Virus record (IMG/VR): IMGVR_UViG_3300014827_000003
Location: 1-52,692 of that record
Strand: one strand, 5' to 3'
Length of the DNA: 52,692 nt
Origin: a virus
Taxonomy: Duplodnaviria > Caudoviricetes
Positions 6,132 through 48,501 of the stretch are shown piece by piece. The notes under the pieces are model-generated. The model was not told the origin of the DNA, made no database searches, and worked only from the letters and a program-made list of their open reading frames with translations. Within the stretch, counting starts at the first letter, position 1. Every line of letters starts with the position of its first letter. A program made the translations under genes and the position numbers.

Positions 6132-6913
6132 ATACTCCTAGGAAATTAAAAGTCCTAGATCTATTTAGTGGAATAGGTGGCTTCTCTTTAGGACTTGAAA
6201 GAACGGGCGGCTTTGAAACAATCGCTTTTTGCGAAATCGATGAAAACTGTAGAGAGGTTTTGTACAAACACTGGCCCGAAATAACAGCGTTCCACGATAT
6301 ACGATATGTTAAAAACGTAGAAGAGATGTATGACATAGACGTAATTTGTGGGGGCTACCCCTGCTCAGGTCATTCGGTAGCTGGTAAAAAAGAAGGATTG
6401 AAAAATGAAGCAAGTAACTTGTGGTATGAATATCTCCGACTTATCGGAGAAATTAAACCAAGATATGTCATCATTGAGAACTCACACAATCTTAGAAGTA
6501 CAGGATTGGCAGGAGTTATCCAAGATCTCTGCGAGAAGGGCCTTAATTGTGAATGGCAGATTTTTTCTGGTTACGGAATTGGTTCCCCACATCAACGGGA
6601 AAGAATTTACATCGTGGCATGGAGAAACGACATACCCTACCCCGACCCGTTTCGATCATGGCCGACCTATTCTAAAAAAGAGGAAACCAAATCCGAGTGG
6701 TGGGCAAAAAGACGGTTTGAGAGAAACCCTTTGTACGGACAAATCCCAACGCTTGAATCCAAAACTGTTAGAACTGATGATGGGTCTTCCAATAGACTAC
6801 ACATTAGTGGAATTGAGGAAAGAATTAAACAGTTGGGAAATTCTTTAGTGGTAGATATTGTATATGAAATCGGAAAAGGAATTTTAGCTAGTGAGGCACA
6901 GCAATGGCTTTAG
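6128..6913 (+). CDS. C5 cytosine DNA methyltransferase, alpha chain (lacks motif IX)
   Basis: Motif I DLFSGIGG, IV GGYPC, VI IENS, VIII HQRERIY, X LGNSLV. Confidence 0.92.
   Translation: MNTPRKLKVLDLFSGIGGFSLGLERTGGFETIAFCEIDENCREVLYKHWPEITAFHDIRYVKNVEEMYDIDVICGGYPCSGHSVAGKKEGLKNEASNLWYEYLRLIGEIKPRYVIIENSHNLRSTGLAGVIQDLCEKGLNCEWQIFSGYGIGSPHQRERIYIVAWRNDIPYPDPFRSWPTYSKKEETKSEWWAKRRFERNPLYGQIPTLESKTVRTDDGSSNRLHISGIEERIKQLGNSLVVDIVYEIGKGILASEAQQWL
6405..6848 (+). CDS. putative C5-MTase beta chain in an overlapping frame (carries motif IX)
   Basis: YPTPT and RLNPKLLELMMGLPIDYT; AAGGA RBS 7 nt before ATG 6405. Confidence 0.75.
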   Translation: MKQVTCGMNISDLSEKLNQDMSSLRTHTILEVQDWQELSKISARRALIVNGRFFLVTELVPHINGKEFTSWHGETTYPTPTRFDHGRPILKKRKPNPSGGQKDGLRETLCTDKSQRLNPKLLELMMGLPIDYTLVELRKELNSWEIL

Positions 6914-8607: not shown

Positions 8608-10309
8608 GAAGCTTTAAAGTAACTGTTCCTGAATTCCAAATTTGGTGTATTTTATTAATCCTACAATTTTCTTTCTCGGATGCTCCAGGATTAAATTTAC
8701 CTCCTAAAATTTTAGCTAGTTCTTTCCTCCTAAATTTAAACTTAGATACTCTTTTATCCTTATACACATAGTGAAGTGTGCGGTTTTCAGTGACATACTG
8801 AAACCCGTTTTTGTAGTATGCTCCACCCTCAAATTTATCTAGATCAACATAACTCACTAAATCTTCCAATGGATTTGATCTCCTCCAATTAGTCAGTAGT
8901 TTTGAAAATCCTCCAACAACTGAGGTATCTATTTTATTTGCCATTCTCTGAAGTTCCCACCCGGAATACCCCTTCTTAAATGCCATTAGGCAAACTAGTT
9001 CTCCATCGTAGTTTAACCCAAGATAAGTTGAAGCAGAGCCACCACTTCCCAGAAGGTGATTTTCATCTAGAAATATTGTCGCTTTGTCAGAACTTACCTC
9101 TATTAGTAAACACTTTCTCGCGTATATTTTAGTGATATCCTTATTTAGAACATTCCTTAAATAGGCTTTGACTACTTCCTTGTTATTTTTAAACTCATCT
9201 TCCCAAATTTGAATTACTCTTATTCCCTCTCTATTGAAAGCCCTTCTTTTATTCGTGTGGTAATTAGAATCCTTAGTCCTAGATGAGTGGAAATGCAGTC
9301 CGTTATACTCAATTGCCAAATTAATTTCAGGGAGGAAAATATCTGCTTCAAGATTACTTAGTAATAGTCCTGTCCAGTTCCTTAAAATTACCCCTCTGTA
9401 AATCTCTCCAATATAACTGGCTAAGACCTCTTCTCCCTTAGAGAAGTTTACAGCACATTTTGGACAACCCATAACGCAGCCATGCGCATGGTCCTTCCAA
9501 TTCTGTAGAAAACTCCCGTGAGATGGGCAGACAATATTCAAATTTTCACAATATCTAGTATCCCAATCAACTAAGGAGTAATCATATTTACTACTGTATT
9601 TCTTATTACAATAGTCCAACCACTCGCCAAATTTTAAACTTAGCCTAACAGAAGTTTCATCTCCCTTACATTTAGGACACCCTACATTTTTTGTTACTTG
9701 GTCGTAGTACAAACTAGCAAATTCCCCATGTGTGCCACACACACCAGTTATTTTGGAGTGTGAGTCTTTATATTCTTTTCCCAGATATGGGAAATCGTAT
9801 CTGTCCCCGTAAATTTCCAGTAAGGTTTTAGAAACTTTGTCAATAGAGTTTCTTCTTAAATCTGCCCCATAGTCTCTGGAACATTTAAAGCAAGCCCTAT
9901 TTTCAGATCGGGTGAAAAATTGCCTAACAGTTTTAGAGAATACTCCGTGAGTAGGGCAACTTAAATTAAGTGTCAGATTATAGTTAATAGGGCCGACACA
10001 TTCTGAAACAATACTAACACCTAATTTATAAGCTCTGACCAGAACTCTATCCCAGGTAATTCCCTTGCTGGAAATTATCGCAGAAGTAGTTCTCTCCCTA
10101 CCACATTTAGGACACCCCCTTTTTGTCGAAACATGAGAACTAGGGGTTTGGGAAAAATCTCCATGGATTTTACACCCTATAATAATATTATAGTCATTCC
10201 TGATATACTCCGATTTAGAGTAGTCATAAAGATCCCCGTGAACTTCAACGGCTCTTTGCAACATAGTGGCGGTATCCACCACTCGAATCTTATTTTTCAA
10301 ATTATCCAT
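8531..10309 (-). CDS. Hef-like homing endonuclease: Zn-ribbon repeats, PD-(D/E)xK/Vsr-like nuclease and GNAT/Mom-like domain
   Basis: Four C..HG.F...C.KC repeats; EADIFLPEINLAIEYNGLHFH...IQIWEDE; ARKC...FLDENHLLG...ELQR...GGFSKLL...YYKNGF. Confidence 0.75.
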   Translation of the reverse strand: MDNLKNKIRVVDTATMLQRAVEVHGDLYDYSKSEYIRNDYNIIIGCKIHGDFSQTPSSHVSTKRGCPKCGRERTTSAIISSKGITWDRVLVRAYKLGVSIVSECVGPINYNLTLNLSCPTHGVFSKTVRQFFTRSENRACFKCSRDYGADLRRNSIDKVSKTLLEIYGDRYDFPYLGKEYKDSHSKITGVCGTHGEFASLYYDQVTKNVGCPKCKGDETSVRLSLKFGEWLDYCNKKYSSKYDYSLVDWDTRYCENLNIVCPSHGSFLQNWKDHAHGCVMGCPKCAVNFSKGEEVLASYIGEIYRGVILRNWTGLLLSNLEADIFLPEINLAIEYNGLHFHSSRTKDSNYHTNKRRAFNREGIRVIQIWEDEFKNNKEVVKAYLRNVLNKDITKIYARKCLLIEVSSDKATIFLDENHLLGSGGSASTYLGLNYDGELVCLMAFKKGYSGWELQRMANKIDTSVVGGFSKLLTNWRRSNPLEDLVSYVDLDKFEGGAYYKNGFQYVTENRTLHYVYKDKRVSKFKFRRKELAKILGGKFNPGASEKENCRINKIHQIWNSGTVTLKLPKYNEFRGPHICSLPPSLESTLPNT

Positions 10310-14699: not shown

Positions 14700-16124
14700 G
14701 TGGAAAATTTGGATAATGTTACCCTCTTAGCTTTGGTAGACGCTTTAGTCGAAGACGCTATTAAAAAAATTGATATGCCTGAAGTTCTTACTGGTCCAAG
14801 GGGGATCAAAGGTAAAGACGGTAATGATTTCAATCTAGAAGATCACGCAGAAGAAATATCCAATCTTATAATTTCACACATACCTAAAACATTTGAACTA
14901 TCCGAAGATCAGAAAGCAGAGTTAGTCGGACCTCGTGGACGAGATGGTAAAAATGGTGAAGATGGTAAAGATTACGATTTAGAAGTTTTAAAAGAAGCAG
15001 TAACAAATACAATATTAGAAATACGAGACACCTTAAAATTAAAATTTAATGATTTACTGGAAGAGGATATTGAATCCTTGAGAGGTCCCCGAGGGCTAAA
15101 AGGTAAAGATGGAAATGATTTTATCTTTGAAGATAATTCAGAGGCCATAACTAAAATAATCTCTAATACGATAGACCAAAATAAGGATCACTATAAATTA
15201 AAATTTTGTGACCTAACAGAGGAAGAAACTGAGGGCCTACGAGGACCTAGAGGTCAAAGAGGAAAAGCTGGTAGAGACTTCTCACTAGACGACTCAAAAC
15301 CCTTTATTGAAGAATCCCTAAAAGAAATATTTCAAGCTAATTCTGAAGACCTTAAATTAAAATTTATTAATCTCACAGATGTAGAGAAAGACAGTTTAAA
15401 GCTAAAATTTGATGACCTAACCTTTGATAACAAGTTGGAATTAAAGGGGGCAAGAGGTCAAAAAGGAAAGCAGGGAACTCAGGGAGAAAGCATAGTTGGC
15501 CCTCGTGGCCCTATCGGTCCAGTTGGTCTGCGAGGAATGCAGGGACTCCCCGGAAAAGACACAATTGCTTTTGATGGAAAAGATGGAGCAAACGGGAAAG
15601 ATGCTCCAATAGTTGAAGATGTAAAATTACTAGATAATAAAGATTATATCGCTCTAGAGTTTAACTATAGCGATGGAAGTTCTGTTAAAACTAACGAGAT
15701 AAAACTTCCATTAAAGTCTGCTACTAATATATATAATTCATCTTTTGCTTCACCTCAGTCTGCTGCAAATGTGCTGCTTTCCGGGGTAGTGTGTGACCCT
15801 TCAGTGTATGTAGGGTCTGCAGTATATATTGATAATAGTGGAACAGCCTTTAATGCAATAGCTACATCTATGGCAACTTCAAATGTTATAGGGATAGTGG
15901 AAAGTAAGCAGGGGTCTGGGCTTTGTACAATAAGGTTTTTAGGGGTATCTGGAAATATTTATTCGGGGTTAGACACTACCCAAGAATATTTTTTAAGTGA
16001 TACAGTACCAGGAGCAATAACAACGGCCATAATAAGTTCTGGGAATATCATATTAAAGTTAGGTCAACCTTTTAGCAGTTCCTCTTTCCTTGTACTTAAG
16101 GGAACAAGGATATTAAAAGTATGA
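14700..16124 (+). CDS. collagen-like head fibre with C-terminal cement/fibre-anchor-like domain
   Basis: Repeated G-X-Y runs (GPRG..G..G.D) alternating with LKLKF motifs; C-terminal VG..VY...IGIV...YFLS...G.IT. Confidence 0.7.
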   Translation: MENLDNVTLLALVDALVEDAIKKIDMPEVLTGPRGIKGKDGNDFNLEDHAEEISNLIISHIPKTFELSEDQKAELVGPRGRDGKNGEDGKDYDLEVLKEAVTNTILEIRDTLKLKFNDLLEEDIESLRGPRGLKGKDGNDFIFEDNSEAITKIISNTIDQNKDHYKLKFCDLTEEETEGLRGPRGQRGKAGRDFSLDDSKPFIEESLKEIFQANSEDLKLKFINLTDVEKDSLKLKFDDLTFDNKLELKGARGQKGKQGTQGESIVGPRGPIGPVGLRGMQGLPGKDTIAFDGKDGANGKDAPIVEDVKLLDNKDYIALEFNYSDGSSVKTNEIKLPLKSATNIYNSSFASPQSAANVLLSGVVCDPSVYVGSAVYIDNSGTAFNAIATSMATSNVIGIVESKQGSGLCTIRFLGVSGNIYSGLDTTQEYFLSDTVPGAITTAIISSGNIILKLGQPFSSSSFLVLKGTRILKV

Positions 16125-25071: not shown

Positions 25072-25427
25072 TGTACTCCTCCCTAATAGGAGTTCCTTAT
25101 TTGGAACTTGACTGCTGGGGAATCGCCCGAGAGTTCTACAGATTGCAATTTAACACAGAGCTTAAAAGATATTACGATGAGATCCCTCAAAATCGTGCAA
25201 TTGCAGAAAATTTAATTTACACTAACAAAGGTGATTTTAAAAAAATTGAAAGCCCTGAATTCGGGGATATTATTTTAATAAAACTCTTTGGAGTAGAATC
25301 ACACATAGCTATTTATTTGGGTGGTGGAAAGATACTCCACACTTCTAAGAATCATGGATGCCATATCGATTCTCTTAAAAAATGGGAGAAGGTGGTGGTA
25401 GCTTTTTACAGAGTTATGAATGATTAA
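25071..25427 (+). CDS. NlpC/P60 tail-tip assembly peptidase (gpK-like)
   Basis: DCWG, GDII, HIAIYLGGGKILH. Confidence 0.85.
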   Translation: MYSSLIGVPYLELDCWGIAREFYRLQFNTELKRYYDEIPQNRAIAENLIYTNKGDFKKIESPEFGDIILIKLFGVESHIAIYLGGGKILHTSKNHGCHIDSLKKWEKVVVAFYRVMND

Positions 25428-28400
25428 AATAAAATTAAACGCAATAGCTAGTAAAGAAAATACCGTAAAATTTATTCCTGATGAGACTCTGGATAAATTA
25501 ATAAATAGATCCCTACTAGATTATGGATTAAATCCTGCTGATGAAAAGATCCTTCAATATTTCTGTGCTTTCTTAGACGGAAAAGAGATCCCCAGAGAAT
25601 TTTGGGAATATTGCTCCGTAGAAGAAAGTGCAGAAATATTGATTGCTCCTGTATTAAAGGGAGGAGATTTTGGGCAGATATTTGGGCAGATATTAGTTTT
25701 AGCTGCGGTAGTAACTGCTGCGTACCTCACAGCAGGTATGAGTAATTGGGCAATTGCAGGTATTGTGGGAGCTACCTCTATTGGAGCTACTCTACTCGTC
25801 CATGCCTTAATACCTCCACCTATCCCCGGAGGTTTAGGAGGATTCAGTTCTTCTGGAAATAGCTACGCTGACTCTCAGATGAACAGCATTGCTGGCCAAT
25901 CTAATTCAGTTAAAAAATTTGGAAATGTTCCTAAAGTTTACGGAACATATAAAACTTATCCCAACGTAGCAGCAGCCCCCTACACTGAATTAGAAACTGA
26001 TGTATCCACGGGGCAATTAGTCCAGTATTTCTATGCAGTTTATGATTTTGGTTTCGGCCCTGCAGTTATTAGCGATATAAAATTAGGCGATACTTCAATT
26101 AATAGTTTCACTGATTGGCAAATAAACTTAGTAGATTTCAATAAACCGGCAATCAGCGAAGGTTATTGGGATGATGCCACATCTAATTCTCTTAAATACT
26201 ATAAGGGAGAAGTGTCAGTTGATTCGACTGCTGCTGCAATTAATTTAAATAAAAATGATGCTGGGACTTCCCCAGATGACTATCAAGTAACTAGATCTGC
26301 TGCTGCCAATCCGAGTAGCTATACTCAAGAAATTTCACTAGATTTCGTTTGTCCAAAAGGTCTTTATTGTTTAGGGACTAATGGAGATAGATCTAGCAGG
26401 ACGATAGAATTAGAAATCTATTTTTCTAAGGTCGGAGCAAATGATTGGAAAGCCTATAATGACCCCCTATACGTTTCATCTTTTCTCTCCGCTGGTGGAA
26501 CTGATGCTGAATTTAAGTCCTCAAAGCTAACTCCGGCCCCAGGTATAATTGGAGATGCTTACTCAGTTTTGATCCATAGATATGTATATGTAGCATACGT
26601 TTGGATTAGCGCAACTAAACAATATGCTCTAACCCACTATTTCAATGTAGTCTACGCTGCTGGAACTTCACAAATAATTGTAGCGACTTCAGAAATAAAT
26701 GTTGGGGACATTCTTGGCCAAGGGACAGAAAATTTTGGGACTGTAACAAGCTTAACTGCTCTTGCAAGCAGGACAGGATTCTCTTTAGCAACTATCGATG
26801 TACCGCTATCTAGAGATATTGTAGTAGCTCAAGTGTCTTATTATGATAGGAGTGGACTCACTGACACCACCCCTCCTTGGCAAGGATCTCTTGGAGCTCC
26901 AATTGTTAAGCAAAATTTATCTTATGGTAAAGTAGCAATAACAGCTAATAGTCAAAGCCAAATATTTGCTACCTTTAAATTTAAACCTCGTGAGATTGCA
27001 GCGTATGAAGTGCGAGTTACGAGGATAACATCTCACTCGATATATACGTTTCAAGTGGGGGATGAGTTATCCCTATACGAAATTGTAACTAGATTTGATG
27101 CAGCTCCGATTGTTACAACTAATCGCCATTTATTTTTAGAGATAAAAATAAAAGCAACTAACCAATTAAATGGGACAATCCAAAATTTATCCGCAGTATG
27201 CTCCTCAGTTTTAGACACCTATGATACTGGAACATCTTCATGGGTTAAAAAAGTTACAGATAATCCTGCATGGGTTTTTGTAGATTTAATGACAGGCGAA
27301 ATTAATAAGAGAAAAATTTCTAAAGATAGATTGGATCTAACCTCTATCCTTGAGTGGGAAGCTTTTTGTAATGAGATTCCGGTACCCCCTCCCTCAACTA
27401 CCTACACAATGAAGAGGTTTGGGACCAATTTTATTTTAGACTATTCTACTACCCTCCAAGGGGTAATTGGAACTGTGGCCAATGCTGCTCAGGCCAGTTT
27501 AAATATGGTGGATGGGAAGTATGGAGTTCTAATTGATAAAAAAAGAACTATTCCAGTACAAATATTTACTCCCAGAAATTCTAGTGGATTCTCTTCAACT
27601 CGAAACTATTCTGATCCCCCTGATGCTATAAAAGTAGTTTTTGCTGACCCAAATTTAAACTGGCAGCAATCCGAAAGAGTAGTTTACAGTGACGGGTTTA
27701 ATGCAGTTAATTCTGTTAAGTTTGACAGTCTCCCATCTTTTGCTTGCACTAACCACGAACAAGCTTGGAGATTTGGCCGATACATGATGGCCCAAAATAG
27801 ATTGAGACAAGAACAAATTTCTATTACGGTTGATTTTGAGTACTTAGTTTGTACCCGTGGGGATTATGTTCAAATTACTCAGGACGTAATGTTAGTCGGA
27901 GGGCAACCAGCAAGAGTAAAAACAGTAGTTGGAACAACTATTACAATAGATGATGGGGTCACAACAACTATTGGTCCTAGCTACGGATATGTCTCTAGAG
28001 GCCCTTCAGGAATAATTACTAATACTCTAACTGTTATCGATTCCACTACTTTTATTTTGGCCGGAGCTATCCCAGGGGTTGGAGATCTAATTGTTATCGG
28101 AGAAGTTGGTTCAATTGTTTTAGATTGTATCGTAAAAGCAATTTCTCCTTCTGATGCTTTGACGGCCCAATTACTGCTGGTAGAAAAAGCTGACGCAGTT
28201 TATGATGCAGAATCTACTATGGATAATCCTGCATACTCGCCACAATTAACCACTTCATTGGGGGATAGTACTACTCCTCCTGGGGAAGTTAGAAGTTTAG
28301 AAATAGCTAGCAATAGTTGGAAGTTCAATGGGTCAGGATATGACTATTATATAGGACTTGATTGGGGAGTTCCGACTACAGGTGGAGCTTATGAGGCATT

Positions 28401-29682
28401 CGAAGTTTATGTCGATGATGGCTCAGGTTACAATCTCTATGATGTAACTAGAAATTCAGACGATATTGTAAATATTCTAATTACAGAATTAGGTCTTGTA
28501 CATAATTTTAAAGTTCTTGCCGTAAGTGCAAACGGTTCAAAACTAGATTTAGGGTCAGTGGGATTTGTCTCTGCAACTCCAGTTGCTAAAACAACTAGAC
28601 CTGGAGATGTATTAGATCTTTACATAAATATTACCAATGAAGTTCTTCAATTAAATTGGATAGCCCCTACTGATATTGATATTAAAGAATACTTAATTCG
28701 CTATTCTCCTGTTCCCACAGGTACTTGGAACTCATCAATCCCTTTGATGAAAACTGGAAATTCTAATACAACTACAGCTACCCAAGCTCGAACTGGAACA
28801 TATTTAATTAAGGCAATTGATTGGAATGGAAATGAATCAGGTAATGCCGCTGAGGCCATTACCTCTATCCCCAATCTTTTTAATTTAAATATAGTCGAAA
28901 CTACCTCCGACTTTCCGAGTCTTTTAGGGGTTGGGGATCAGGTTCAAGTTCTTGCTGGAAGTTTAATAATCCAAAATAAAGTTGTTGGAGGGGTAAGCAC
29001 AAATGAGTATTACTCAGAAGCATTTTATTATTACAATAATTTTTTAGATTTAGGGGATATTTATTCGGTTAGATTACAATCCCTAATACAGGCTGAAGGA
29101 TATACGCTTGATGATTTAATGAGTAATTGGACTTCTCTTGACAATGTTATATCCCTATCCAATTCTAAATTCTCTGAGTGGGACGTTGAGACACAAGTTA
29201 GAGCTACTAACACCTTAAACGTAATGAGTGAATGGCCCTCCCTAAATGTAATTGACCCTATTAGCGTGGGGAACCAGGATAACTTTACTCCTTGGAGAGT
29301 ATTTACTATGGGAGATTTCACTGGAAGGATTTTTCAATTCCGACTCCGCTTAATTAGTAATAAGGCCAGTGTTTCTCCACGAGTTTTTGATGGGGTAATA
29401 AAATCTGACATGCCGGATCGTACCGATATTTACAATAATCTATCAAGTTCTGCCACTATTCCGTATGTAGTTACATACTCCACCCCGTTTAAAGGGCCTG
29501 GAACAACACCGAATGTGCAAATAACTCAGGATGCGGCTCAAGCTGGGGATAGATTCGTACTAAGTAATAAGACTCTTTCCAGTTTCGAAATTGTTTTCTA
29601 TGATGGTACAAGTGCTCAGGTAGTAAGACAATTTGACTGCGCAGTGAAAGGGTTTGGTCATAAGAGTGCAAATTCTATATAG
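25420..29682 (+). CDS. tail tip/host-specificity protein J-like, with fused N-terminal gpI-like region and FN3-like domains
   Basis: VPKVYG, NPAWVF.DL, IFTPRNS, QAWR.GRY, RGD.V, TYLIKAID..GNES. Confidence 0.88.
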   Translation: MIKIKLNAIASKENTVKFIPDETLDKLINRSLLDYGLNPADEKILQYFCAFLDGKEIPREFWEYCSVEESAEILIAPVLKGGDFGQIFGQILVLAAVVTAAYLTAGMSNWAIAGIVGATSIGATLLVHALIPPPIPGGLGGFSSSGNSYADSQMNSIAGQSNSVKKFGNVPKVYGTYKTYPNVAAAPYTELETDVSTGQLVQYFYAVYDFGFGPAVISDIKLGDTSINSFTDWQINLVDFNKPAISEGYWDDATSNSLKYYKGEVSVDSTAAAINLNKNDAGTSPDDYQVTRSAAANPSSYTQEISLDFVCPKGLYCLGTNGDRSSRTIELEIYFSKVGANDWKAYNDPLYVSSFLSAGGTDAEFKSSKLTPAPGIIGDAYSVLIHRYVYVAYVWISATKQYALTHYFNVVYAAGTSQIIVATSEINVGDILGQGTENFGTVTSLTALASRTGFSLATIDVPLSRDIVVAQVSYYDRSGLTDTTPPWQGSLGAPIVKQNLSYGKVAITANSQSQIFATFKFKPREIAAYEVRVTRITSHSIYTFQVGDELSLYEIVTRFDAAPIVTTNRHLFLEIKIKATNQLNGTIQNLSAVCSSVLDTYDTGTSSWVKKVTDNPAWVFVDLMTGEINKRKISKDRLDLTSILEWEAFCNEIPVPPPSTTYTMKRFGTNFILDYSTTLQGVIGTVANAAQASLNMVDGKYGVLIDKKRTIPVQIFTPRNSSGFSSTRNYSDPPDAIKVVFADPNLNWQQSERVVYSDGFNAVNSVKFDSLPSFACTNHEQAWRFGRYMMAQNRLRQEQISITVDFEYLVCTRGDYVQITQDVMLVGGQPARVKTVVGTTITIDDGVTTTIGPSYGYVSRGPSGIITNTLTVIDSTTFILAGAIPGVGDLIVIGEVGSIVLDCIVKAISPSDALTAQLLLVEKADAVYDAESTMDNPAYSPQLTTSLGDSTTPPGEVRSLEIASNSWKFNGSGYDYYIGLDWGVPTTGGAYEAFEVYVDDGSGYNLYDVTRNSDDIVNILITELGLVHNFKVLAVSANGSKLDLGSVGFVSATPVAKTTRPGDVLDLYINITNEVLQLNWIAPTDIDIKEYLIRYSPVPTGTWNSSIPLMKTGNSNTTTATQARTGTYLIKAIDWNGNESGNAAEAITSIPNLFNLNIVETTSDFPSLLGVGDQVQVLAGSLIIQNKVVGGVSTNEYYSEAFYYYNNFLDLGDIYSVRLQSLIQAEGYTLDDLMSNWTSLDNVISLSNSKFSEWDVETQVRATNTLNVMSEWPSLNVIDPISVGNQDNFTPWRVFTMGDFTGRIFQFRLRLISNKASVSPRVFDGVIKSDMPDRTDIYNNLSSSATIPYVVTYSTPFKGPGTTPNVQITQDAAQAGDRFVLSNKTLSSFEIVFYDGTSAQVVRQFDCAVKGFGHKSANSI

Positions 29683-29704: not shown

Positions 29705-30943
29705 ATGGCCCAATCAATCTTTACATCAATCTCCCCTTCAACTACCTCGGGAGACCAGTTGGCAACTATCCTAAATAACTTTAAGGATGCATATGTCACA
29801 GGTAATAGTGGAACTTCTCGTCCTTCTGCCCTACAAGCTGGGGGAGTTTGGGTAGATGTAACTAATAATCCTACAAGCTGGGCACTAAAACTATATAACG
29901 GATCAGTAGATATTTCTCTGTTTGTTATTAATTTAGTTTCGGGGATTGCTTCAATAACTTCTACAGATTCAATTTTTGAAATTGATAAATCAAGCAACGA
30001 TGCAGTTGGGGCCATTCTAAAATTCTTCAAGAAAAGACCTATAGGAAATCAAACTTTAGCTTCAGATGTGATTGGCGAAATCGATTTTTATGGTAACAGA
30101 GATACAGATGTAGCAACGGTCCAAGCAAGAATAACTGCTACATCTTCTAATAACGTAACGGCTTCTCAGCAAGGAGCTTATTTAATTTTTGAAGGAACAA
30201 GTTTAAATGCTTCTTCCGTAGCTGAATGGATGAGATTAGTTGATGCTAAGTTAGGTATTGGGATTTCAACCCCAGAAGAAACTCTGCATGTAAGAGGAAC
30301 TGGAGTAAAGGTAGGAAAGTTTAGTGATGACGCTATTGGATCTAAATTATCCTTCAGAAAATCTCGTGTAACTGGAGTGGGCCAAGTTCAAAGTGCTGAT
30401 GTAGTTGCAAGTCAAACATATAATTCTACTGATGATAGTGGACTAGAAATTGAAGTTGCCAGAATAGAAGTTATTGCGAGTGAACTTCACACTTCTACTG
30501 CTCAGGGAAGTACTGTAAAAATAAAAAGTAAAAAGTCTGGAACTACAACTTTAGTAGATTCAATTGTTATAGACGATTCTGGGGTAGCTATTCCAGAATT
30601 AAAAGCCGGAAGTGGCGGTGGGATGAGATTCACAGCAGTCCAAGATATAACTGCCAGTGGAACTATTGCAGTTGGGATAGCTCCTCAACAGGCTTTAAAT
30701 GTTCAAGGAAGTGCTGGTCCTCAAGATTCTAACACAGTCCCATTTGCAACTAATCCCCCTGATGGAACAATAATCACATTAATTGGTAGGGATGATGCAA
30801 AAATTCTAACAATTTTTCACAATGATGTCACTAACGGGTGTGTACTAAAAGGTGATTGCTACTTAGGTAAGGATGATGTTCTAATGCTTATAAGAAATGC
30901 AACAACACAAAGATATAATGAACTTACTAGGAGCGTACATTAA
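29705..30943 (+). CDS. tail fibre/virion structural protein
   Basis: After J; SGTSRPS..Q.G.VW.D anchor-like motif; GIGISTPEETLHV fibre motif. Confidence 0.65.
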   Translation: MAQSIFTSISPSTTSGDQLATILNNFKDAYVTGNSGTSRPSALQAGGVWVDVTNNPTSWALKLYNGSVDISLFVINLVSGIASITSTDSIFEIDKSSNDAVGAILKFFKKRPIGNQTLASDVIGEIDFYGNRDTDVATVQARITATSSNNVTASQQGAYLIFEGTSLNASSVAEWMRLVDAKLGIGISTPEETLHVRGTGVKVGKFSDDAIGSKLSFRKSRVTGVGQVQSADVVASQTYNSTDDSGLEIEVARIEVIASELHTSTAQGSTVKIKSKKSGTTTLVDSIVIDDSGVAIPELKAGSGGGMRFTAVQDITASGTIAVGIAPQQALNVQGSAGPQDSNTVPFATNPPDGTIITLIGRDDAKILTIFHNDVTNGCVLKGDCYLGKDDVLMLIRNATTQRYNELTRSVH

Positions 30944-33201
30944 TGAAAACCTTACTACTAGCTAGTATATTACTCTTTCTTCCAATGCAATCAGCACTGG
31001 CCGTTACGGAAAATACTGGAAGACTCGATAATATAACAACAAATAATCCTGCAAAAATAACTGTAGATGTTCTAAAGAATTTAAATATTAATACTACTGG
31101 TGGATTGTATTTACCTAATGGAACTACAGCTCAAAGAATTTCTCCTTCAAAGGATGGGTTTTTAAGATACAACTCTACAACTGGCACAGCAGAACTTTAT
31201 GCTAATTCAGCTTGGGGCGCAGTTGGTGGGGGGCTTTCGGCTTGGGTTACAGCTAAGGCCTATTCAGTGGGCGATATAGTTATTCAATCTAATTTAATAT
31301 ACAAATGTTTAATTGCACACACATCGGGAACTTTTGCAACTGACTTAGGTGCAAGCGATTGGGTTGAAGTATCGGCTCCAGGAAATCTAACAGGGGACAT
31401 GGTATCTACTGGACTATCAACTTCCTACAGTGCGATTGTCCCAACTACTAAAGGTGGAACTGGTTTAAGTACTGTGGGCACTGAAACTAAAGTTTTAAAA
31501 GTAGTCTCGGGCGTTCCTGCTTATGGCGAAGAAGATAGATCAAATCTTTTAGTCAATCCAAACTTTGAAGATACCGCCTTAACGGGATGGGCATGCACGA
31601 CAGGAACATGCACAAGCACGACAACATCAGGAGAGTTCACAGAGGGATTAGCGGCTTATAAGATCACTTCAGGCGCACCGACCGCTATTAACGCCTCTCA
31701 GTCCGTAAGCACTTTATCAGGATCAACTACTCAATATGTAGTAGGTGTAAACTATAAAGTCGATTCGACAATGACCGACTTTCAAATTTGTACCTTGATT
31801 GCAGGAGCAGAAAAGACTTGTGTGCCTTCGGCTAATTTAATTATTGATAATGCTTATCATAGTATCGAGATTCCAGAAGTAATTACTCCAGGTTCTACTG
31901 TAGGAATTAAAGTAAAAACTACTGCGACCTATAACGGAAAGATTGCTTATTTGGATAAGGCTTATATCAAACAAGGCTTAGGAACTCAGAATTTGGCTTT
32001 GGATTACGACTATACTGCTCAGGTTTCAGTAACGGGAGTTATTTCAGCACTAAACAAGCCGGGATGGTTAACGGGTAACTGTGTCGTTTCCCTTACTGCT
32101 CAATATGATTGCCCAATAGCTAGTGGGCTTATTACTACTCAAATGAACTGTCAAGTAACTGCCCAAGGTTCTATCTTTGATGATAGATCGGCATATTATG
32201 ATTATACCAATTCAACCTCGACGAATGTTCGATATAGAACAGCAAACACAGCAAATGCAACAGCAACCGCTTATGCAATGAGCTTAAAGTGCAGCAAGAC
32301 CGGCAACGACTACCTCGCTTCAAGTGCTGCGGTTTATAGTCAGGCGAGTGCGGAAAGTCCCGTTATCCTAACATCTGCCTCAAGCATGACAGTTGGACTA
32401 AGCACCGACACACTAGTCCCCCTTGCGACTATTTCAAGTAATACTAATAATTATTCACTTGTCTCGAATGGTGTCACGATAAGAAAGTCAGGGAAATATC
32501 TTGTAAGGCTCTCGGGTAACTTTTCGGCAAACACTGATGTAGTGACGATGAAATTAGATGTTAACGGAGCAAAAACCTCCGGTGTTGCTCACGCACTAGA
32601 TGCCAATACTGCTGGCTCATGGTCGTATTTCGAAGACAACCTAATCATAGATTTAAGCGCTAACGATGTTCTTAAATTCTACGCATCACAAACGGTAGCA
32701 ACTAGAACTGCGTCTGACTTGAAAATGTATATCCAAGATATTTCTCCATATAGGAGTATCGTTGGATCATTCGCAGGATATTCCCCTATTACAAGTCAAG
32801 TGGGAGCACGAGCATACGCTTCTGCTGCTGTTATATCGGGAACACTTGCTACAGTCGTATGGACTACTGAAAGCTATGATGCAAACAGTGCGCTTGCTTC
32901 AGGAGTATTCACTTGCCCTGTAGCTGGGAAGTATCAAGTAAATACTAGAGTGGAGGTTGCTGGAACGATTGCACTAAACACTCAACTAGACCTACAAGCA
33001 CAAAAAAATGGTACGGTATTCGCTGAAGATTTAAAATATGCAGGTGGAGTAATGACTGATCAAACTGCACAACTGTCAGATGTGATTGATTGTGTTGTTG
33101 GTGATACCGTCAGGGTACAAGTATCCAGTGGTGCCACTACGCCCTCAATTGTGTCTAGTAATTCTAAAAACTTTTTCTCTATACAATGGGTGGCACCATA
33201 A
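30943..33201 (+). CDS. multi-domain fibre/adhesin with N-terminal signal peptide
   Basis: MKT-LLLASILLFLPM-QSALA; LPNGTTAQR..G.LRYN fibre motif; W....AYSVGDIV...YKC..AHTS (CBM5/12-like); NLLVNPNFE (CBM4/9-like); two C1q-like domains. Confidence 0.75.
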   Translation: MKTLLLASILLFLPMQSALAVTENTGRLDNITTNNPAKITVDVLKNLNINTTGGLYLPNGTTAQRISPSKDGFLRYNSTTGTAELYANSAWGAVGGGLSAWVTAKAYSVGDIVIQSNLIYKCLIAHTSGTFATDLGASDWVEVSAPGNLTGDMVSTGLSTSYSAIVPTTKGGTGLSTVGTETKVLKVVSGVPAYGEEDRSNLLVNPNFEDTALTGWACTTGTCTSTTTSGEFTEGLAAYKITSGAPTAINASQSVSTLSGSTTQYVVGVNYKVDSTMTDFQICTLIAGAEKTCVPSANLIIDNAYHSIEIPEVITPGSTVGIKVKTTATYNGKIAYLDKAYIKQGLGTQNLALDYDYTAQVSVTGVISALNKPGWLTGNCVVSLTAQYDCPIASGLITTQMNCQVTAQGSIFDDRSAYYDYTNSTSTNVRYRTANTANATATAYAMSLKCSKTGNDYLASSAAVYSQASAESPVILTSASSMTVGLSTDTLVPLATISSNTNNYSLVSNGVTIRKSGKYLVRLSGNFSANTDVVTMKLDVNGAKTSGVAHALDANTAGSWSYFEDNLIIDLSANDVLKFYASQTVATRTASDLKMYIQDISPYRSIVGSFAGYSPITSQVGARAYASAAVISGTLATVVWTTESYDANSALASGVFTCPVAGKYQVNTRVEVAGTIALNTQLDLQAQKNGTVFAEDLKYAGGVMTDQTAQLSDVIDCVVGDTVRVQVSSGATTPSIVSSNSKNFFSIQWVAP

Positions 33202-33202
33202 T

Positions 33203-33355
33203 ATGAAATATTTATTACTACTTTTACTCCTTGTTTACTTAATCCTTATGTTTTTTGGTTATTTTTTACTGACGATCGGTGGCGAAGGCAAAGAGCTAAA
33301 ATTCAAAGAAGTTTTATTCTCACCATATTATCTTTTAAGAGGGTTTTTGGGATGA
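33203..33355 (+). CDS. small membrane protein (50 aa)
   Basis: MKYLLLLLLLVYLILMFFGYFLL; ATG 1 nt after fibre stop. Confidence 0.6.
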   Translation: MKYLLLLLLLVYLILMFFGYFLLTIGGEGKELKFKEVLFSPYYLLRGFLG

Positions 33356-33483
33356 AAAAACTAATACTAATTATCATAACTATTTTTATATCCTCCTGCT
33401 CCACTTTTCAATGTGAAAAAGATGCAGACGGAAATTGCAAAGCGGTTGATCAAACTGGATTACTGGATCATGGGGGGAATTGA
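33352..33483 (+). CDS. small lipoprotein (43 aa), Cor/Llp-like candidate
   Basis: Own translation MKKLILIIITIFISS-CSTFQCEKDADGNC...; lipobox ISSC; ATGA coupling. Confidence 0.65.
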   Translation: MKKLILIIITIFISSCSTFQCEKDADGNCKAVDQTGLLDHGGN

Positions 33484-33485
33484 TT

Positions 33486-33968
33486 ATGAGACTCCTTAAC
33501 GAAGCCGGAATGAGTATTCTTAAATACTCCGAAGGATACACCGCTAAACCAGAAAACGATTGTTTGGGAATACCTACCGTCGGAATCGGCACAATAGTAT
33601 ATCCTAATGGAGTACACGTCCAATTAGGTGACCCCGAGATAACTTTAGAAAAAGCATTGGAATATCTCAATTATGAATTGAGAGAAAAATCAGCAACGGT
33701 AGAAGATTGGCTTAATTCAAACCATGTCGAATTATCAGATAACCAATTTTCTGCGTTGCTGTGTTTTGCATATAATTGTGGAACTGGCCCTATTACTCAC
33801 CCTAGTTCTCTAAATAGGGCAATACTAAAAAAAGATGGCCCTGCTATTAGAAAAGCTTTTATGCTGTATGTTAAGGGGACTAAGAAAATATTAGGGATTC
33901 CTTACAAGGTGACTTTAAAAGGACTTGTAATTAGGAGGGGTAAAGAGGCTTCTCTTTATTTTTCATAA
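33486..33968 (+). CDS. endolysin, GH24 (T4-lysozyme-like) muramidase
   Basis: E-x8-D-x5-T triad (SEG...DCLGIPTVG), NQFSAL..FAYN.G, GLVIRR..E. Confidence 0.92.
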   Translation: MRLLNEAGMSILKYSEGYTAKPENDCLGIPTVGIGTIVYPNGVHVQLGDPEITLEKALEYLNYELREKSATVEDWLNSNHVELSDNQFSALLCFAYNCGTGPITHPSSLNRAILKKDGPAIRKAFMLYVKGTKKILGIPYKVTLKGLVIRRGKEASLYFS

Positions 33969-34618: not shown

Positions 34619-34644
34619 GGGCGGTTAAATACCGCCCATTTTTT
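34619..34644 (+). terminator. intrinsic terminator
   Basis: GGGCGGT-TAAAT-ACCGCCC plus ATTTTTT. Confidence 0.8.
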
Positions 34645-45018: not shown

Positions 45019-45468
45019 ATGACATCAGAAAATCTAGCGAAGTGGAGAGAGGAGTGTAGGATATTTGAAAACAGTCCACGCTCTGAAAACATTAACGGTC
45101 AAAGTTTTTATCTCGAAGCTTGCGAAAAGCGACAGGTGGAGATTGACGAGTTGAAAGCGAGAGCGGTTGTTCATGGTAAGACAATGTTTCACGAACTAAC
45201 CTTGTTTGATATTTCAGTCAAGGATTATCAAAAGCAAATCCAAAAACTCAAAGAACAGAAAGAATATATCATGGGGATGTATGATAGCGTGTTTAATGAA
45301 AATTTTAAGCTAAAAGAGCAGTTAAAGATTGAGAGGGAGTTAGTTGACGAAGCCTATCCCGAAATGCTGCCTTTGAAATATAAAGCAGTTCAAGAAAAAA
45401 GAGAGCCATATAAATATATTGATTGGCAAGAAAGAGTTAAATTAACCCAACAACAAAGGAGTGAGTGA
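45019..45468 (+). CDS. coiled-coil hypothetical protein
   Basis: KLKEQ repeats; ends LTQQQRSE. Confidence 0.7.
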   Translation: MTSENLAKWREECRIFENSPRSENINGQSFYLEACEKRQVEIDELKARAVVHGKTMFHELTLFDISVKDYQKQIQKLKEQKEYIMGMYDSVFNENFKLKEQLKIERELVDEAYPEMLPLKYKAVQEKREPYKYIDWQERVKLTQQQRSE

Positions 45469-45689
45469 TGAGTGAGCAGGATAAGTTAAAAGAGGATAAG
45501 GAAGTGGCGGCAATAATGAAGATAAATGAAGTTCTTAAGGAGATAAAAGACCCTGACGACATATCGAGAATCTTAGAATACTTCACGGCCAGGTATTGTT
45601 TTAGTTATAAAAACGGAAGAGAGTCAACACTTAGAAATATCGAGTTTATGCTTAATAAGTACTGCAAAACAGACATTAGTGAACCTTAA
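45465..45689 (+). CDS. hypothetical protein
   Basis: Starts within junction repeat. Confidence 0.65.
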   Translation: MMSEQDKLKEDKEVAAIMKINEVLKEIKDPDDISRILEYFTARYCFSYKNGRESTLRNIEFMLNKYCKTDISEP

Positions 45690-45692
45690 ATA

Positions 45693-46202
45693 GTGGAGAT
45701 GGAAATGACAGCTGAAAAATTAAAAGACATATTAGATAATCATAAAAAATGGCTAAGTAATAGCAACGAAGGGGCTAGAGCTAACTTGCGTGGAGCTAAC
45801 TTGTGTGGAGCTGACTTGCGTGGAGCTGACTTGCGTAGAGCTGACTTGCGTGGAGCTAACTTGCGTGGAGCTAACTTGAGGGAAGCTAACTTGTGTGGAG
45901 CTGACTTGAGGGGAGCTAACTTGTGTGGAGCTGACTTGCGTGGAGCTAACTTGAGGGAAGCTAACTTGCATAGAGCTGACTCAGACTTTTCGGTATTTAG
46001 AGGACTATCCGGAATGAAATGGTTTGTTTTGTTAAAAAATGATTCAGTAAAAATAGGATGCCAAGAACATTTATACAAAACATGGAAAGAATTTTCAGAT
46101 GATAAGATTTCTAAGATGAGCGAGGGAGCTTTAGGTTTTTACAACATGATTATTCCAGTGCTAGATTATCACTATAAAAATACTGAATGGGAAATTAAAT
46201 AA
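45693..46202 (+). CDS. pentapeptide-repeat protein, paralog 1
   Basis: 13 A(D/N)Lxx repeats; C-terminal IGCQEH..W domain. Confidence 0.9.
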
Positions 46203-46696
46203 TGGAGATAAAAATGAAAGCTGAAAAATTAAAAGACATATTAGATAATCATAAAAAATGGCTAAGTAATAGCAACGAAGGGGCTAGCGCTAACTTGCGT
46301 GGAGCTGACTTGAGGGGAGCTGACTTGAGGGGAGCTAACTTGCGTGGAGCTGACTTGAGTGGAGCTGACTTGAGGGGAGCTAACTTGAGTGGAGCTGACT
46401 TGAGTGGAGCTGACTTGCATGGAGCTGACTTGCGTGGAGCTAACTTGAGTGGAGCTGACTTGTATGGAGCTGAATCCGACTTTTCAATACTTGTAGGAAT
46501 ATCAGGAATGAGATGGTTTGTTTTGTTAAAAAATGATTCAGTAAAAATAGGATGCCAAGAACACACCTATAAATCGTGGAAGGAATTTTCAGATGGTGAG
46601 ATTTCTAAGATGAGCGAGGGAGCTTTGGATTTTTACTATATGATTATTCCAGCGCTAGATTATCACTACGAAAATACTGAATGGGAAATTAAATAA
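46202..46696 (+). CDS. pentapeptide-repeat protein, paralog 2
   Basis: 12 repeats; tandem duplicate of paralog 1. Confidence 0.9.
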
Positions 46697-47289
46697 TGGA
46701 GATAAAAATGAGCTTGGGATTAATGGACGATGAAGAGAAAGCAAAACTACATAGCGAATTTGTTCACTATATCGTTGCTAAAAACTTAGAACTTTATGAG
46801 GAGATTAAAAAACTCAAAGAGCAGTTAAAGCGTGAGCAAGATTGTGTGGATAAATTTGTAATATCTAGATTTTGGTCTAAGGTCGATGTTAAGAAAAAGA
46901 ATGAGTGTTGGAATTGGAGGTCTTCAATTTCTAACGGATACGGAAAGTTTTCAATAGATAATTATCCTCATTCAGCCCACGTTATATCCTATAAATATTT
47001 CCATGGTGAATATGACAAAGAACTATGGATTGACCACAAATACATGAATCGGTCGTGTGTAAATCCTGAGCACCTAAGACTTGTTACTCCGAGAATAAAT
47101 GGAATAGAAAATAGCGGCGGTACTTCGGCTGAGAATTTTTTAAAAACTCATTGTAAAAATGGTCATGAATTTACGGCAGAAAATACATATCTAAGGAAAC
47201 ATGGCACTTACACACATAGGATGTGCAAAGCTTGTGCGAAAATATCAAAAAAACTAGCCCGATTAACCCAACAAAACAGGAGTGAGTGA
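46696..47289 (+). CDS. HNH endonuclease fused to coiled-coil N-terminus
   Basis: RFWSKV..CWNW...GYG...AH...IDH...CVNPEHL...N, THCKNGHEF. Confidence 0.85.
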   Translation: MEIKMSLGLMDDEEKAKLHSEFVHYIVAKNLELYEEIKKLKEQLKREQDCVDKFVISRFWSKVDVKKKNECWNWRSSISNGYGKFSIDNYPHSAHVISYKYFHGEYDKELWIDHKYMNRSCVNPEHLRLVTPRINGIENSGGTSAENFLKTHCKNGHEFTAENTYLRKHGTYTHRMCKACAKISKKLARLTQQNRSE

Positions 47290-47879
47290 TGAAAGTTCTT
47301 GTTGCTTGCGAATATAGTGGAGTTGTAAGAGATGCCTTTAAGCGAAGAGGTCACGATGCCATATCGTGCGATTTTCTCCCGAGTGACTCCCAGGGAGAGC
47401 ATTATCAGGGAGATGTCTTTGATATAATTAACGATGGGTTTGACTTAATGATCGCCCACCCTCCTTGTACTTATTTATGCAATAGCGGTGTTTCTTGGCT
47501 GCATAAAGATCCAACCAGATGGGGGAAAATGTTACAGGGAGCATTGTTTTTTAGAAACTTGTTAGATGCCAACATTCCAAAAATTTGTATAGAAAACCCC
47601 ATTATGCACAAGTATGCGTATGAGAGGGGTAATTTTATGAACTATAATCAAATAATTCAACCTTGGATGTTTGGACACCCAGAATCAAAATCTACTTGCC
47701 TTTGGTTGAAAGGGTTAAGTCCATTAGTAGAAACAAACAACGTAAAAGAAGAATTTCTAGCACTACCTAAAAAAGTAGCTCAAAGACTTCATTACTTACC
47801 ACCATCAAAAGATAGGTGGAAACTAAGATCAACAACGTTTCAAGGAATAGCGGACGCAATGGCAGAACAGTGGGGATAA
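47286..47879 (+). CDS. short phage-type cytosine DNA methyltransferase-like protein
   Basis: VLVACEYSG, IAHPPCTYL, IENP, QPWMFG, RS.TF.GIA.AMA.QWG. Confidence 0.8.
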   Translation: MMKVLVACEYSGVVRDAFKRRGHDAISCDFLPSDSQGEHYQGDVFDIINDGFDLMIAHPPCTYLCNSGVSWLHKDPTRWGKMLQGALFFRNLLDANIPKICIENPIMHKYAYERGNFMNYNQIIQPWMFGHPESKSTCLWLKGLSPLVETNNVKEEFLALPKKVAQRLHYLPPSKDRWKLRSTTFQGIADAMAEQWG

Positions 47880-47902
47880 TTAACCCAACAAAACAGGAGT
47901 GA

Positions 47903-48130
47903 GTGATGAGTAAAATTAAGAAAGGTGATTGCGTAATTAACTACTGTGAAAGCGAAGGGATTATCAATATAGGGTTCGTAATGGATGAGCCAAATGATAC
48001 AGACGAGCATGATTTACAGTTTTTCGACGGAGGGTCAGTAAGTCCAGTTAGCACTAGTGATAGTTACGCTATACCAGAAAAGCTAGGTAGATATTTGGAT
48101 AGTTTAATTCCGTTTATTGACGAAGATTAA
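47903..48130 (+). CDS. hypothetical protein
   Basis: Bounded by two junction repeats. Confidence 0.65.
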   Translation: MMSKIKKGDCVINYCESEGIINIGFVMDEPNDTDEHDLQFFDGGSVSPVSTSDSYAIPEKLGRYLDSLIPFIDED

Positions 48131-48153
48131 CCCAACAACAAAGGAGTGAGTGA

Positions 48154-48501
48154 ATGTTCTGGATAATATTACCTCTATTTAGTTTTATCCTCGGATGGTT
48201 TTTATCTAAACAGCATGAAGAAGACAGACTATCTTTTAGATTAAAAGAAGCAAGAGTAGGAGGTTTTTTAACAGGGAAAAGACATGGTATTTTTGTTAGC
48301 CATCTTCAAGCAAAGCAAACAATGAAAGAATTAAAAAAGTTTATTGCTGTTAAGTATCCCTATAGATCTAACGAACACGATAGAGAAATAACAAGTGTGA
48401 TATTTAGGCACCCATATGATAAAGCCATTTATGAGATATGCAATTTAACGGAGTACCAGGGAGTCACTAATTTGATACATAAAAGTGACAAGGAGAAATA
48501 A
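48154..48501 (+). CDS. hypothetical membrane-anchored protein
   Basis: N-terminal TM; follows junction repeat. Confidence 0.65.
   Translation: MFWIILPLFSFILGWFLSKQHEEDRLSFRLKEARVGGFLTGKRHGIFVSHLQAKQTMKELKKFIAVKYPYRSNEHDREITSVIFRHPYDKAIYEICNLTEYQGVTNLIHKSDKEK

Follow-up and report, generated by a model that had tools for sequence, protein, structure and literature searches.

The late genes of the virus considered here raise the question of why a protein with the make-up of a tail fibre should begin with a Sec-type signal peptide, when the assembly of tailed-phage particles is held to be an entirely cytoplasmic process. The DNA analysed (the window) is the complete virus record IMGVR_UViG_3300014827_000003 (Duplodnaviria; Caudoviricetes), which is 52,692 bp long, carries direct terminal repeats and has a G+C content of about 37%. 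Its gene content is that of a siphovirus, with a large terminase, major head protein, portal, tape measure protein and replication genes. The late genes run in the order tape measure protein, gpJ-like tip protein, a 412-residue fibre-shaft protein (the ‘stub’), a 752-residue fibre open reading frame (ORF; positions 30943-33201, plus strand) and endolysin. A first-pass annotation, made from the letters alone, had proposed that the 752-residue product is either a receptor-binding fibre that is exported, folded oxidatively and joined to virions at lysis, or an adhesin displayed on the host surface. The ORF is indeed present, and the analysis reported here leads to a model of a two-part side fibre, in which the distal, lectin-type half would be exported by Sec, cut after Ala20, folded in the periplasm and joined to the leaderless shaft at lysis. 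We regard this model in its entirety as evenly poised between right and wrong. The more general proposition, that the distal fibre matures outside the compartment in which the particle is assembled, is probably correct, because cleavage of the leader would expose the very end of the protein that is predicted to plug into the shaft.

A Sec-type leader on the presumed distal fibre protein

The fibre protein begins MK/TLLLASILLFLPM/QSALA and, beyond a predicted cleavage site after residue 20, continues as VTENTG. This N-terminus has an n-region of charge +1, an h-region of 13 residues, and alanine at both the -3 and -1 positions. It therefore falls within the single crude rule for Sec/signal peptidase I (SPase-I) substrates that, together with conservation, underlies all of the leader calls reported here, namely a positive n-region, an h-region of 7–15 residues and small residues at -3 and -1. 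The ‘textbook’ n-h-c signal with an AxA motif described by the first-pass annotation is thus borne out by the heuristic, while the GGAG ribosome-binding site (RBS) and the TAATG coupling that it reported at the start of the gene can be read directly from the DNA (Table 1). An alternative, internal start at Met15 was discarded, as it lacks a Shine–Dalgarno (SD) site and the methionine is not conserved.

Application of the same rule to the 79 plus-strand ORFs of at least 60 residues in the window gave nine positives. The fibre is the only one of these longer than 115 residues; the remaining eight, all of 115 residues or fewer, are small membrane or lysis-type proteins. In the related loci L002, L004, L005 and L006 the large ORF flagged by the rule is also the fibre. 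In an AlphaFold2 (AF2) model of the window protein, residues 2-11 form a helix that is followed by a disordered stretch at residues 14-28.

The leader is conserved in the manner of a targeting signal

Among 57 relatives that share the central domain of the fibre, 52 are leader-positive. The five negatives comprise P0025, which has an evident leader on which the rule failed, P0016 and P0040, which have truncated starts, P0015, which begins exactly at the predicted mature end, and P0014, which genuinely lacks a leader and carries a T7-type fibre anchor. For the relatives listed as a whole the figure is 73 of 120, the negatives being mostly distant proteins that share only the unit resembling carbohydrate-binding module (CBM) families 5/12. 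N-terminal modules of at least seven kinds are found behind leaders.

The N-terminal module of the fibre itself (residues 21-150) was followed in an all-against-all HMMER search, which returned 4679 proteins at E ≤0.001, mostly by way of the repeated CBM5/12-like unit. From the best 150 of these matches, the 27 with an N-terminal match were examined. Leaders were found in 25 of the 27, and in 22 of the 23 that also carry the docking (start) motif, the exception being a 139-residue fragment. In 22 of the 23 clusters with this module the leader is 17-25 residues long, and although its sequence varies freely, a positive n-region, an h-region of 10-15 residues and small residues at -3 and -1 are kept. 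An alignment of 22 sequences (leaving out a duplicate N-terminus, the fragment and one sequence with another module, and adding P0004) shows that the conserved mature part begins 0-6 residues past the cut, with D29 and N34 present in all 22, P36 in 21 and T32 in 20. A leader that is free to vary, and that nevertheless retains its design ahead of a conserved mature start, displays the pattern of a targeting signal and not of a structural contact. As judged from these alignments, the pattern of conservation fits a targeting signal placed before a functional N-terminus. On the first of the two points by which the first-pass annotation let its proposal stand or fall, then, the signal is both predicted and conserved.

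These data bear on a reading in which the hydrophobic N-terminus does not serve export. The fibre would then be assembled in the cytoplasm, its helix either packed into the joint with the stub or cleaved off by some other protease, or the N-terminus would act as an uncleaved inner-membrane anchor until lysis. To our knowledge, all well-studied tailed phages assemble their fibres in the cytoplasm, and this established behaviour is an argument for such a reading; moreover, cleavage of the leader is a heuristic prediction, and the leaderless P0014 has the same distal modules. A helix held in a joint is, however, difficult to reconcile with leaders that retain targeting-signal design while their sequences diverge, or with the position at which P0015 starts. 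In addition, about a third of the leader-bearing relatives (P0005-P0085, P0186-P0269) have glutamine at +1, as do Bacteroidota SPase-I substrates according to the accessible part of the source (PMC5837995). The predicted docking interface described below, which begins at residue 21, also argues against this reading, and we consider it improbable.

The mature N-terminus is predicted to dock onto the upstream shaft

The gene that overlaps the fibre start encodes the stub, for which neither Pfam nor PHROG gave a match. All 35 of its relatives are leaderless, and they are conserved over residues 1-300 and variable beyond. The AF2 model of the stub has a predicted local distance difference test (pLDDT) value of 86. 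Its closest fold in the PDB is that of 4uw7, the T5 L-shaped tail fibre C-terminal domain (E 3e-9; template modelling (TM) score 0.60 by target), with the Bdellovibrio MAT fibres Bd1334 and Bd2439 next. On the basis of this model, the stub is a fibre shaft with a T5 pb1-like fold.

The last 125 residues of the stub are approximately 50% identical to the C-terminus of P0155, a leaderless protein of 500 residues with N-terminal matches to the anchors of podovirus tail fibres and tailspikes (phrog_1640, phrog_36601 and others). In the locus L017, P0045, which has a leader followed by a VTENTG-type module, starts one base past the P0155 stop codon, and endolysin is the next gene. The combination of this shaft end with this fibre start is thus found on two different anchors (n=2 loci).

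A complex was predicted from three copies of stub residues 287-412 and three copies of mature fibre residues 21-150. The interaction prediction score from aligned errors (ipSAE) was 0.92, and the best of three control predictions scored 0.00. In calibration, 58 of 80 solved complexes and 2 of 110 mismatched pairs attained 0.92, counts that are only a rough guide to a 3+3 job with its own alignments and several copies. At least 73% of contacts are shared between runs, with a partner pLDDT of 85 or more. On the fibre side the predicted interface comprises residues 21-27, 29 and 34-36, which are the first after the cut and include the invariant D29, N34 and P36; on the stub side it comprises residues 371-373, 381-386 and 411-412. 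Structure prediction with the product of 29705-30943, a step suggested by the first-pass annotation, therefore places the mature fibre N-terminus on the stub C-terminal domain, and the model supports docking of residues 21-36 at this site. A C-x5-C arrangement (Cys379, Cys385) was also noted that is conserved in the stub socket (30563-30940) and in L017 (6001-6369); it lies within the predicted interface and is odd for a cytoplasmic protein.

Leader-bearing relatives again close the structural module in L002, L004, L005 and L006, where the gene preceding each of them encodes a leaderless protein from a second family (Table 1) for which the PHROG search gave no match. The TAATG overlap that joins the upstream gene to the fibre gene in the window is also present in L002 and L005. 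No relationship was detected between these four upstream proteins and the window stub, and there are therefore at least two stub types. A side observation is that the second family always directly precedes leader-bearing fibres with a ‘GLPPTT’-type start, and it may be a second socket family. In L003 the fibre takes the form of a fused, leaderless, T7-type version.

The docking prediction also bears on a further alternative, in which the fibre is exported and processed and never joins the particle. Such a product would be a free periplasmic or released lectin that masks or saturates the receptor, or excludes superinfecting phages. The T5 lipoprotein Llp, for example, protects progeny. The conserved leader and the receptor-binding-type modules would also fit a protein of this kind, the gpJ-like tip protein already provides a receptor binder, and a small lipoprotein-like ORF lies downstream of the fibre gene. 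Secreted proteins of unknown role that obey host signal rules, namely the Q-rule described below, are also described in Porphyromonas prophages, as far as the accessible part of that account goes (PMC10367356). A free lectin would, however, have no need of a conserved mature N-terminus that is predicted to dock on the upstream shaft. Furthermore, L017 has the same pair following a genuine tail-fibre anchor, and the gene is translationally coupled within a structural operon. We therefore consider the free lectin unlikely, though less so than a fibre that is not exported.

Distal modules and cysteine pairs

The first-pass annotation described CBM5/12-like, CBM4/9-like and two C1q-like segments, a description with which Pfam and fold comparisons agree, the CBM_5_12 match exceeding its cut-off and the others falling below theirs. 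CBM_5_12 (PF02839) matches residues 100-128 with 28.6 bits (cut-off 26.2), covering profile positions 1-29 of 44, and this unit is widely repeated in phage fibres. CBM_4_9 (PF02018) matches residues 200-278 with 25.0 bits, 0.9 below the cut-off of 25.9, and C1q (PF00386) matches residues 651-734 with 17.7 bits against a cut-off of 23.7. The relative P0002, which is 61% identical to the fibre over residues 166-752, has a C1q score of 25.0 bits. PHROG matches cover residues 18-144, and the N-terminal module matches segments of cyanophage ‘virion structural protein’ entries.

The AF2 model of the fibre, built from a 75-row alignment, has a mean pLDDT of 70; the N-terminal module is well modelled at about residues 60-145, residues 200-460 exceed pLDDT 90, and the C-terminus is poor. 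Foldseek matched the central domain to CBM16, CBM61 and CBM4 (TM 0.65-0.77 by target) and the C-terminus, where the AF2 model is of low confidence, to C1q/TNF-type proteins. In an ESM Atlas model, residues 473-752 align to tandem C1q proteins (TM 0.53-0.76 by row), and the halves of the C-terminal region show a weak resemblance to each other (z 3.6; score reached in 1 of 300 shuffles). Fold matches in BFVD were to phage tail fibre, minor tail and CenC-type proteins. The Pfam scan found no S74 chaperone/protease domain in the fibre, no PDB chain was matched by sequence at E ≤1, and a whole-protein search of viral contigs gave no close relatives. Many relatives carry PF26696 (PTL_trimer), a family not mentioned in the literature searched.

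The fibre has 11 cysteines, as the first-pass annotation had stated, at residues 122, 218, 223, 283, 293, 380, 390, 403, 450, 658 and 717. Covariation was counted across 75 aligned proteins. For the pair 283/293, both cysteines are present in 55 proteins, one alone in none and neither in 13; the corresponding counts are 49, 2 and 8 for 403/450, 35, 5 and 30 for 218/223, and 37, 3 and 20 for 380/390. At the level of sequence, these four central-domain pairs are gained and lost together, a pattern that fits disulfides. However, the central and CBM5/12-like modules recur in leaderless T7-type fibres (P0014, L003), and P0014 retains three of the four pairs. The earlier argument from disulfides is weakened to that extent: the pairs do covary, and they do not on their own demand periplasmic folding, because a leaderless relative retains most of them.

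The fibre gene belongs to the late operon

The features of the region are collected in Table 1. The gpJ-like protein upstream of the stub contains the Pfam domains Phage-tail_3 and FNIII-A_GpJ, and among cultured phages it is closest to tail fibre proteins of Rhizobium phages (29% identity). Around the fibre gene, neither promoter-like sites (28, compared with 35.7 ± 5.4 in shuffled sequences) nor terminator-like sites (9, compared with 7.5 ± 3.2) exceed chance, and the first strong terminator is found at 34619, past the lysis genes. Given the TAATG coupling and this lack of any excess over shuffles, the fibre gene is an integral member of the late operon and not a moron; a lysogenic-conversion surface protein with a transcription unit of its own was rejected as a candidate on the same observations. 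The PHROG search gave no match for the 50-residue membrane protein that follows. The 43-residue lipoprotein-like ORF beyond it may encode an o-spanin or an Llp/Cor-type receptor-blocking lipoprotein.

Table 1. Features of the fibre region, and of related loci where named.
Feature	Position	Strand	Basis
gpJ-like central tail fibre/tip attachment protein, 1420 residues, leaderless	25420..29682	+	phrog_31 ‘central tail fiber J’, E 9.4e-78
Proximal side-fibre half: leaderless 412-residue fibre-shaft (‘stub’) protein	29705..30943	+	AF2 model, fold match
Stub C-terminal domain, residues 287-412: predicted socket for exported fibre	30563..30940	+	P0155 similarity, complex prediction
GGAG RBS (30930-33, 9 bases before ATG) and TAATG stop/start overlap (30941-45)	30930..30945	+	Read from sequence
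Sec/SPase-I-type signal peptide, residues 1-20, predicted cut between ALA and VT	30943..31002	+	Heuristic
Mature N-terminal module, residues 21-150 (21-36, predicted docking peptide; 100-128, CBM5/12-like unit)	31003..31392	+	Complex prediction, PHROG, Pfam
Low-confidence Gly/Thr-rich linker, residues 151-195	31393..31527	+	pLDDT <50 at 151-187; module boundary in homolog map
Central lectin-type domain, residues 196-471: CBM4/9/16/61-like jelly roll and further beta domain, four covarying Cys pairs	31528..32355	+	pLDDT >90, Foldseek, Pfam
Tandem C1q/TNF-like tip, residues 472-752, and stop codon	32356..33201	+	Sub-threshold Pfam C1q, ESM Atlas, internal repeat
50-residue membrane protein, putatively holin-like, directly 3' of fibre gene	33203..33355	+	Translation
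43-residue lipoprotein-like ORF (…ISSC lipobox-like, 3 further Cys), between fibre gene and endolysin	33352..33483	+	Translation
Endolysin (phage lysozyme), without leader, first of lysis cassette	33480..33968	+	Pfam PF00959, E 1e-19; phrog_7 endolysin
Second leaderless family	L002 8412-9836; L004 7450-8646; L005 7132-7890; L006 8255-9820		Mutually related, E 2e-8 to 4e-37

The surface adhesin put forward as the second option of the first-pass annotation would be a lysogenic-conversion protein comparable to Lom and Bor of lambda or to PblA and PblB of the Streptococcus mitis phage. A leader combined with lectin-like domains would suit that role, and the accessible part of the work on Bdellovibrio MAT fibres describes leader-bearing, tail-fibre-like trimers that serve a cell (PMC10769870). 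Set against these points are the direct terminal repeats of the genome and the coupling of the gene to its upstream neighbour, with no promoter or terminator signal of its own. No lipobox was seen in the fibre, and Pfam gave no outer-membrane or secretion domain. Relatives are, in addition, nearly absent from 185,579 species genomes, the one hit being a phage-like contig of a metagenome-assembled genome (MAG). The adhesin option is consequently unsupported, and we judge it very improbable.

Host range of the fibre modules

The host was approached through the same 185,579 species genomes. The whole fibre gave no match there, the central domain matched only the MAG contig just mentioned, and the N-terminal alignment gave only CBM5/12-like matches, in Proteobacteria. 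A search of that MAG added nothing on the host, and no tRNA genes were found in the window. The best cultured relatives are too distant to name a host (terminase, a Brucella phage at 38%; portal and gpJ, Rhizobium phages at 29%).

Glutamine at +1 is the Bacteroidota ‘Q-rule’ for SPase-I substrates, as set out in the accessible parts of two sources (PMC5837995, PMC10653852), and its occurrence in many relatives raised a Bacteroidota host as a candidate for the window phage. This was rejected on SD use and on the O-glycosylation sequon. SD-like motifs precede 25 of 53 window genes (background 0.10) and occur at a comparable frequency in L002-L006, whereas they precede only 2 of 63 genes in the Cellulophaga phage discussed below; the Bacteroidota sequon D-S/T-[AILVMT] is not enriched in the fibre (4, compared with 3.9 ± 1.8 in shuffles). 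Because of these SD sites, the unenriched sequon and a +1 residue that is Val and not Gln, the window phage is not Bacteroidota-like. Judged by these sequence features, the same fibre modules seem to be common to phages of different host phyla.

A proposed route of assembly

Together, these results suggest the following sequence of events for the two-part side fibre. Synthesis of the leaderless 412-residue shaft and its attachment to the tail tip would both take place in the cytoplasm. The distal half would be translated from the same late mRNA and routed through Sec by its leader, and signal peptidase I would cut it after Ala20. The fibre would then fold and trimerise in the periplasm, where the four covarying Cys pairs could form disulfides. 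Cleavage would create a new N-terminus, VTENTGRLDNITTNNP, where conservation within the module is highest and which is predicted to plug into the shaft C-terminal domain. The adjacent holin/endolysin cassette, which starts with the endolysin, would break the envelope and so bring periplasm and virions together, whereupon particles would meet fibres and docking would occur. Finally, the CBM-type jelly roll and the tandem C1q/TNF-like tip would, from their folds, be expected to bind a glycan on the host surface.

Several observations weigh against this route. The leader heuristic is crude, in that it also flags small membrane proteins and gave two doubtful positives in L003. The recurrence of the shaft end with the fibre start amounts to two loci only, a third candidate, P0121, not being placed on a contig. 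The complex prediction used the mature form alone and thus has no bearing on whether the leader must be removed. The socket of the leaderless stub itself holds two cysteines (379, 385). The three of four Cys pairs retained by P0014 belong here too, and from sequence it appears that lectin modules of this type can be made without export. Proteins gp087-gp095 of Cellulophaga phage phi10:1, considered below as an analogue, have no real similarity to the fibre family, with one borderline blastp match (E 0.010) and no hidden Markov model match. Lastly, we know of no mechanism that would bring fibres to particles efficiently once lysis has occurred. Of the first-pass proposal of an exported fibre joined at lysis, then, the coupling to the late tail operon, the predicted docking and the recurrence of the pair in L017 lend support, whereas export, cleavage, disulfide formation and presence of the fibre in the virion are what we infer.

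Other features of the window

Three further observations lie outside the fibre region. A 592-residue HNH/homing-endonuclease-like ORF (8531-10309, minus strand; phrog_559, E 2.6e-89) on the opposite strand separates the large terminase gene (6904-8607) from the head genes, and overlaps the end of the former. A 474-residue protein (14700-16124, plus strand) with collagen-like/tail-fibre-repeat PHROG matches lies between the portal and head–tail connector genes, and may be a head or neck fibre. Within 45440-48160 (plus strand), a 34-nt element (…AACCCAACAA…AGGAGTGAGTGATG…) occurs four times, each copy preceding a gene start, and the ORFs 45693-46202 and 46202-46696 have in common a 300-nt repeat with an internal 15-nt periodicity. 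The region resembles a tandemly duplicated gene set with a common leader or RBS cassette.

Implications and comparison with known systems

More broadly, tailed phages of several host groups may use a non-textbook route that combines a Sec-exported distal fibre, a plug made by cleavage, a leaderless socket, oxidative folding in the periplasm and mounting at lysis. We hold this generalisation a little more doubtful than the model for the window itself. If it is true, phage morphogenesis would take in a further compartment as well as a host enzyme, signal peptidase, and leader cleavage would serve as a checkpoint in fibre assembly. It would also explain the disulfide-type Cys pairs of such fibres, and distal fibres would be swappable as self-contained exported cassettes. 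For host-range engineering and the production of receptor-binding proteins, it would mean that the mature form made in the periplasm is the active one. To test the idea, residues 287-412 of the stub and residues 21-150 of the fibre, both small domains, could be used, and the uncultured host would not be needed.

The long tail fibre of T4 and the fibre parts of T5 are leaderless and are assembled in the cytoplasm. In the T4 long tail fibre halves and T5 pb1 (4uw7), too, a distal receptor-binding part with its own gene docks onto a proximal shaft carried by the tail. The difference is that in T4 and T5 all parts lack leaders, whereas in the window the distal part has a Sec leader and the docking end arises only by cleavage. 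Leader-bearing genes in or near the host-recognition region are also familiar from T5 (Llp) and lambda (Lom, Bor); their products are small, either lipoproteins or outer-membrane proteins, and have the host envelope as their target, unlike a fibre-type lectin of 752 residues with a docking module.

The Bdellovibrio MAT fibres resemble the window fibre in design. According to the accessible part of their description, they have a signal peptide, a beta-rich anchoring N-terminal domain of about 130 residues, a trimeric shaft and swappable lectin-like tips (PMC10769870), and the stub fold also matches Bd1334 and Bd2439. MAT fibres are, however, chromosomally encoded and anchored to the predator's own surface, whereas the window gene belongs to a phage tail operon and its product is predicted to be anchored to a shaft; the likeness drawn here is one of design. 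In HTVC010P-type pelagiphages, C1q-like tips are found on hypervariable proteins encoded beside the fibre gene and proposed as receptor binders. Here the resemblance is in C1q-like tips beside a fibre in uncultured aquatic phages, and the accessible part of that report does not mention leaders (PMC3909814).

In the literature searched, no paper was found that describes Sec leaders on the tail fibres of tailed phages, hits for ‘signal peptide’ having concerned other subjects. The first-pass annotation had ranked the locus as its best candidate for an undescribed system. The phenomenon is not unique to this phage, as an analogue exists in the record of Cellulophaga phage phi10:1 (NC_021802), a cultured Bacteroidota siphovirus. 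There, gp091-gp095 all start with Sec-type leaders, and gp091-gp094 are annotated in the record as structural ‘based on experimental MS/MS proteomics analysis’; no paper discussing these leaders was found. Like the window fibre, gp091-gp095 are leader-bearing proteins, of fibre or pectate-lyase type, encoded by the last genes of the tail module, immediately ahead of the lysis region. They differ in that their leaders end with Gln at +1, in a phage without SD sites (2 of 63 genes, compared with 25 of 53 in the window). To this cultured case the window contributes that of a siphovirus that is not Bacteroidota-like, together with a concrete, testable plug-and-socket pair.

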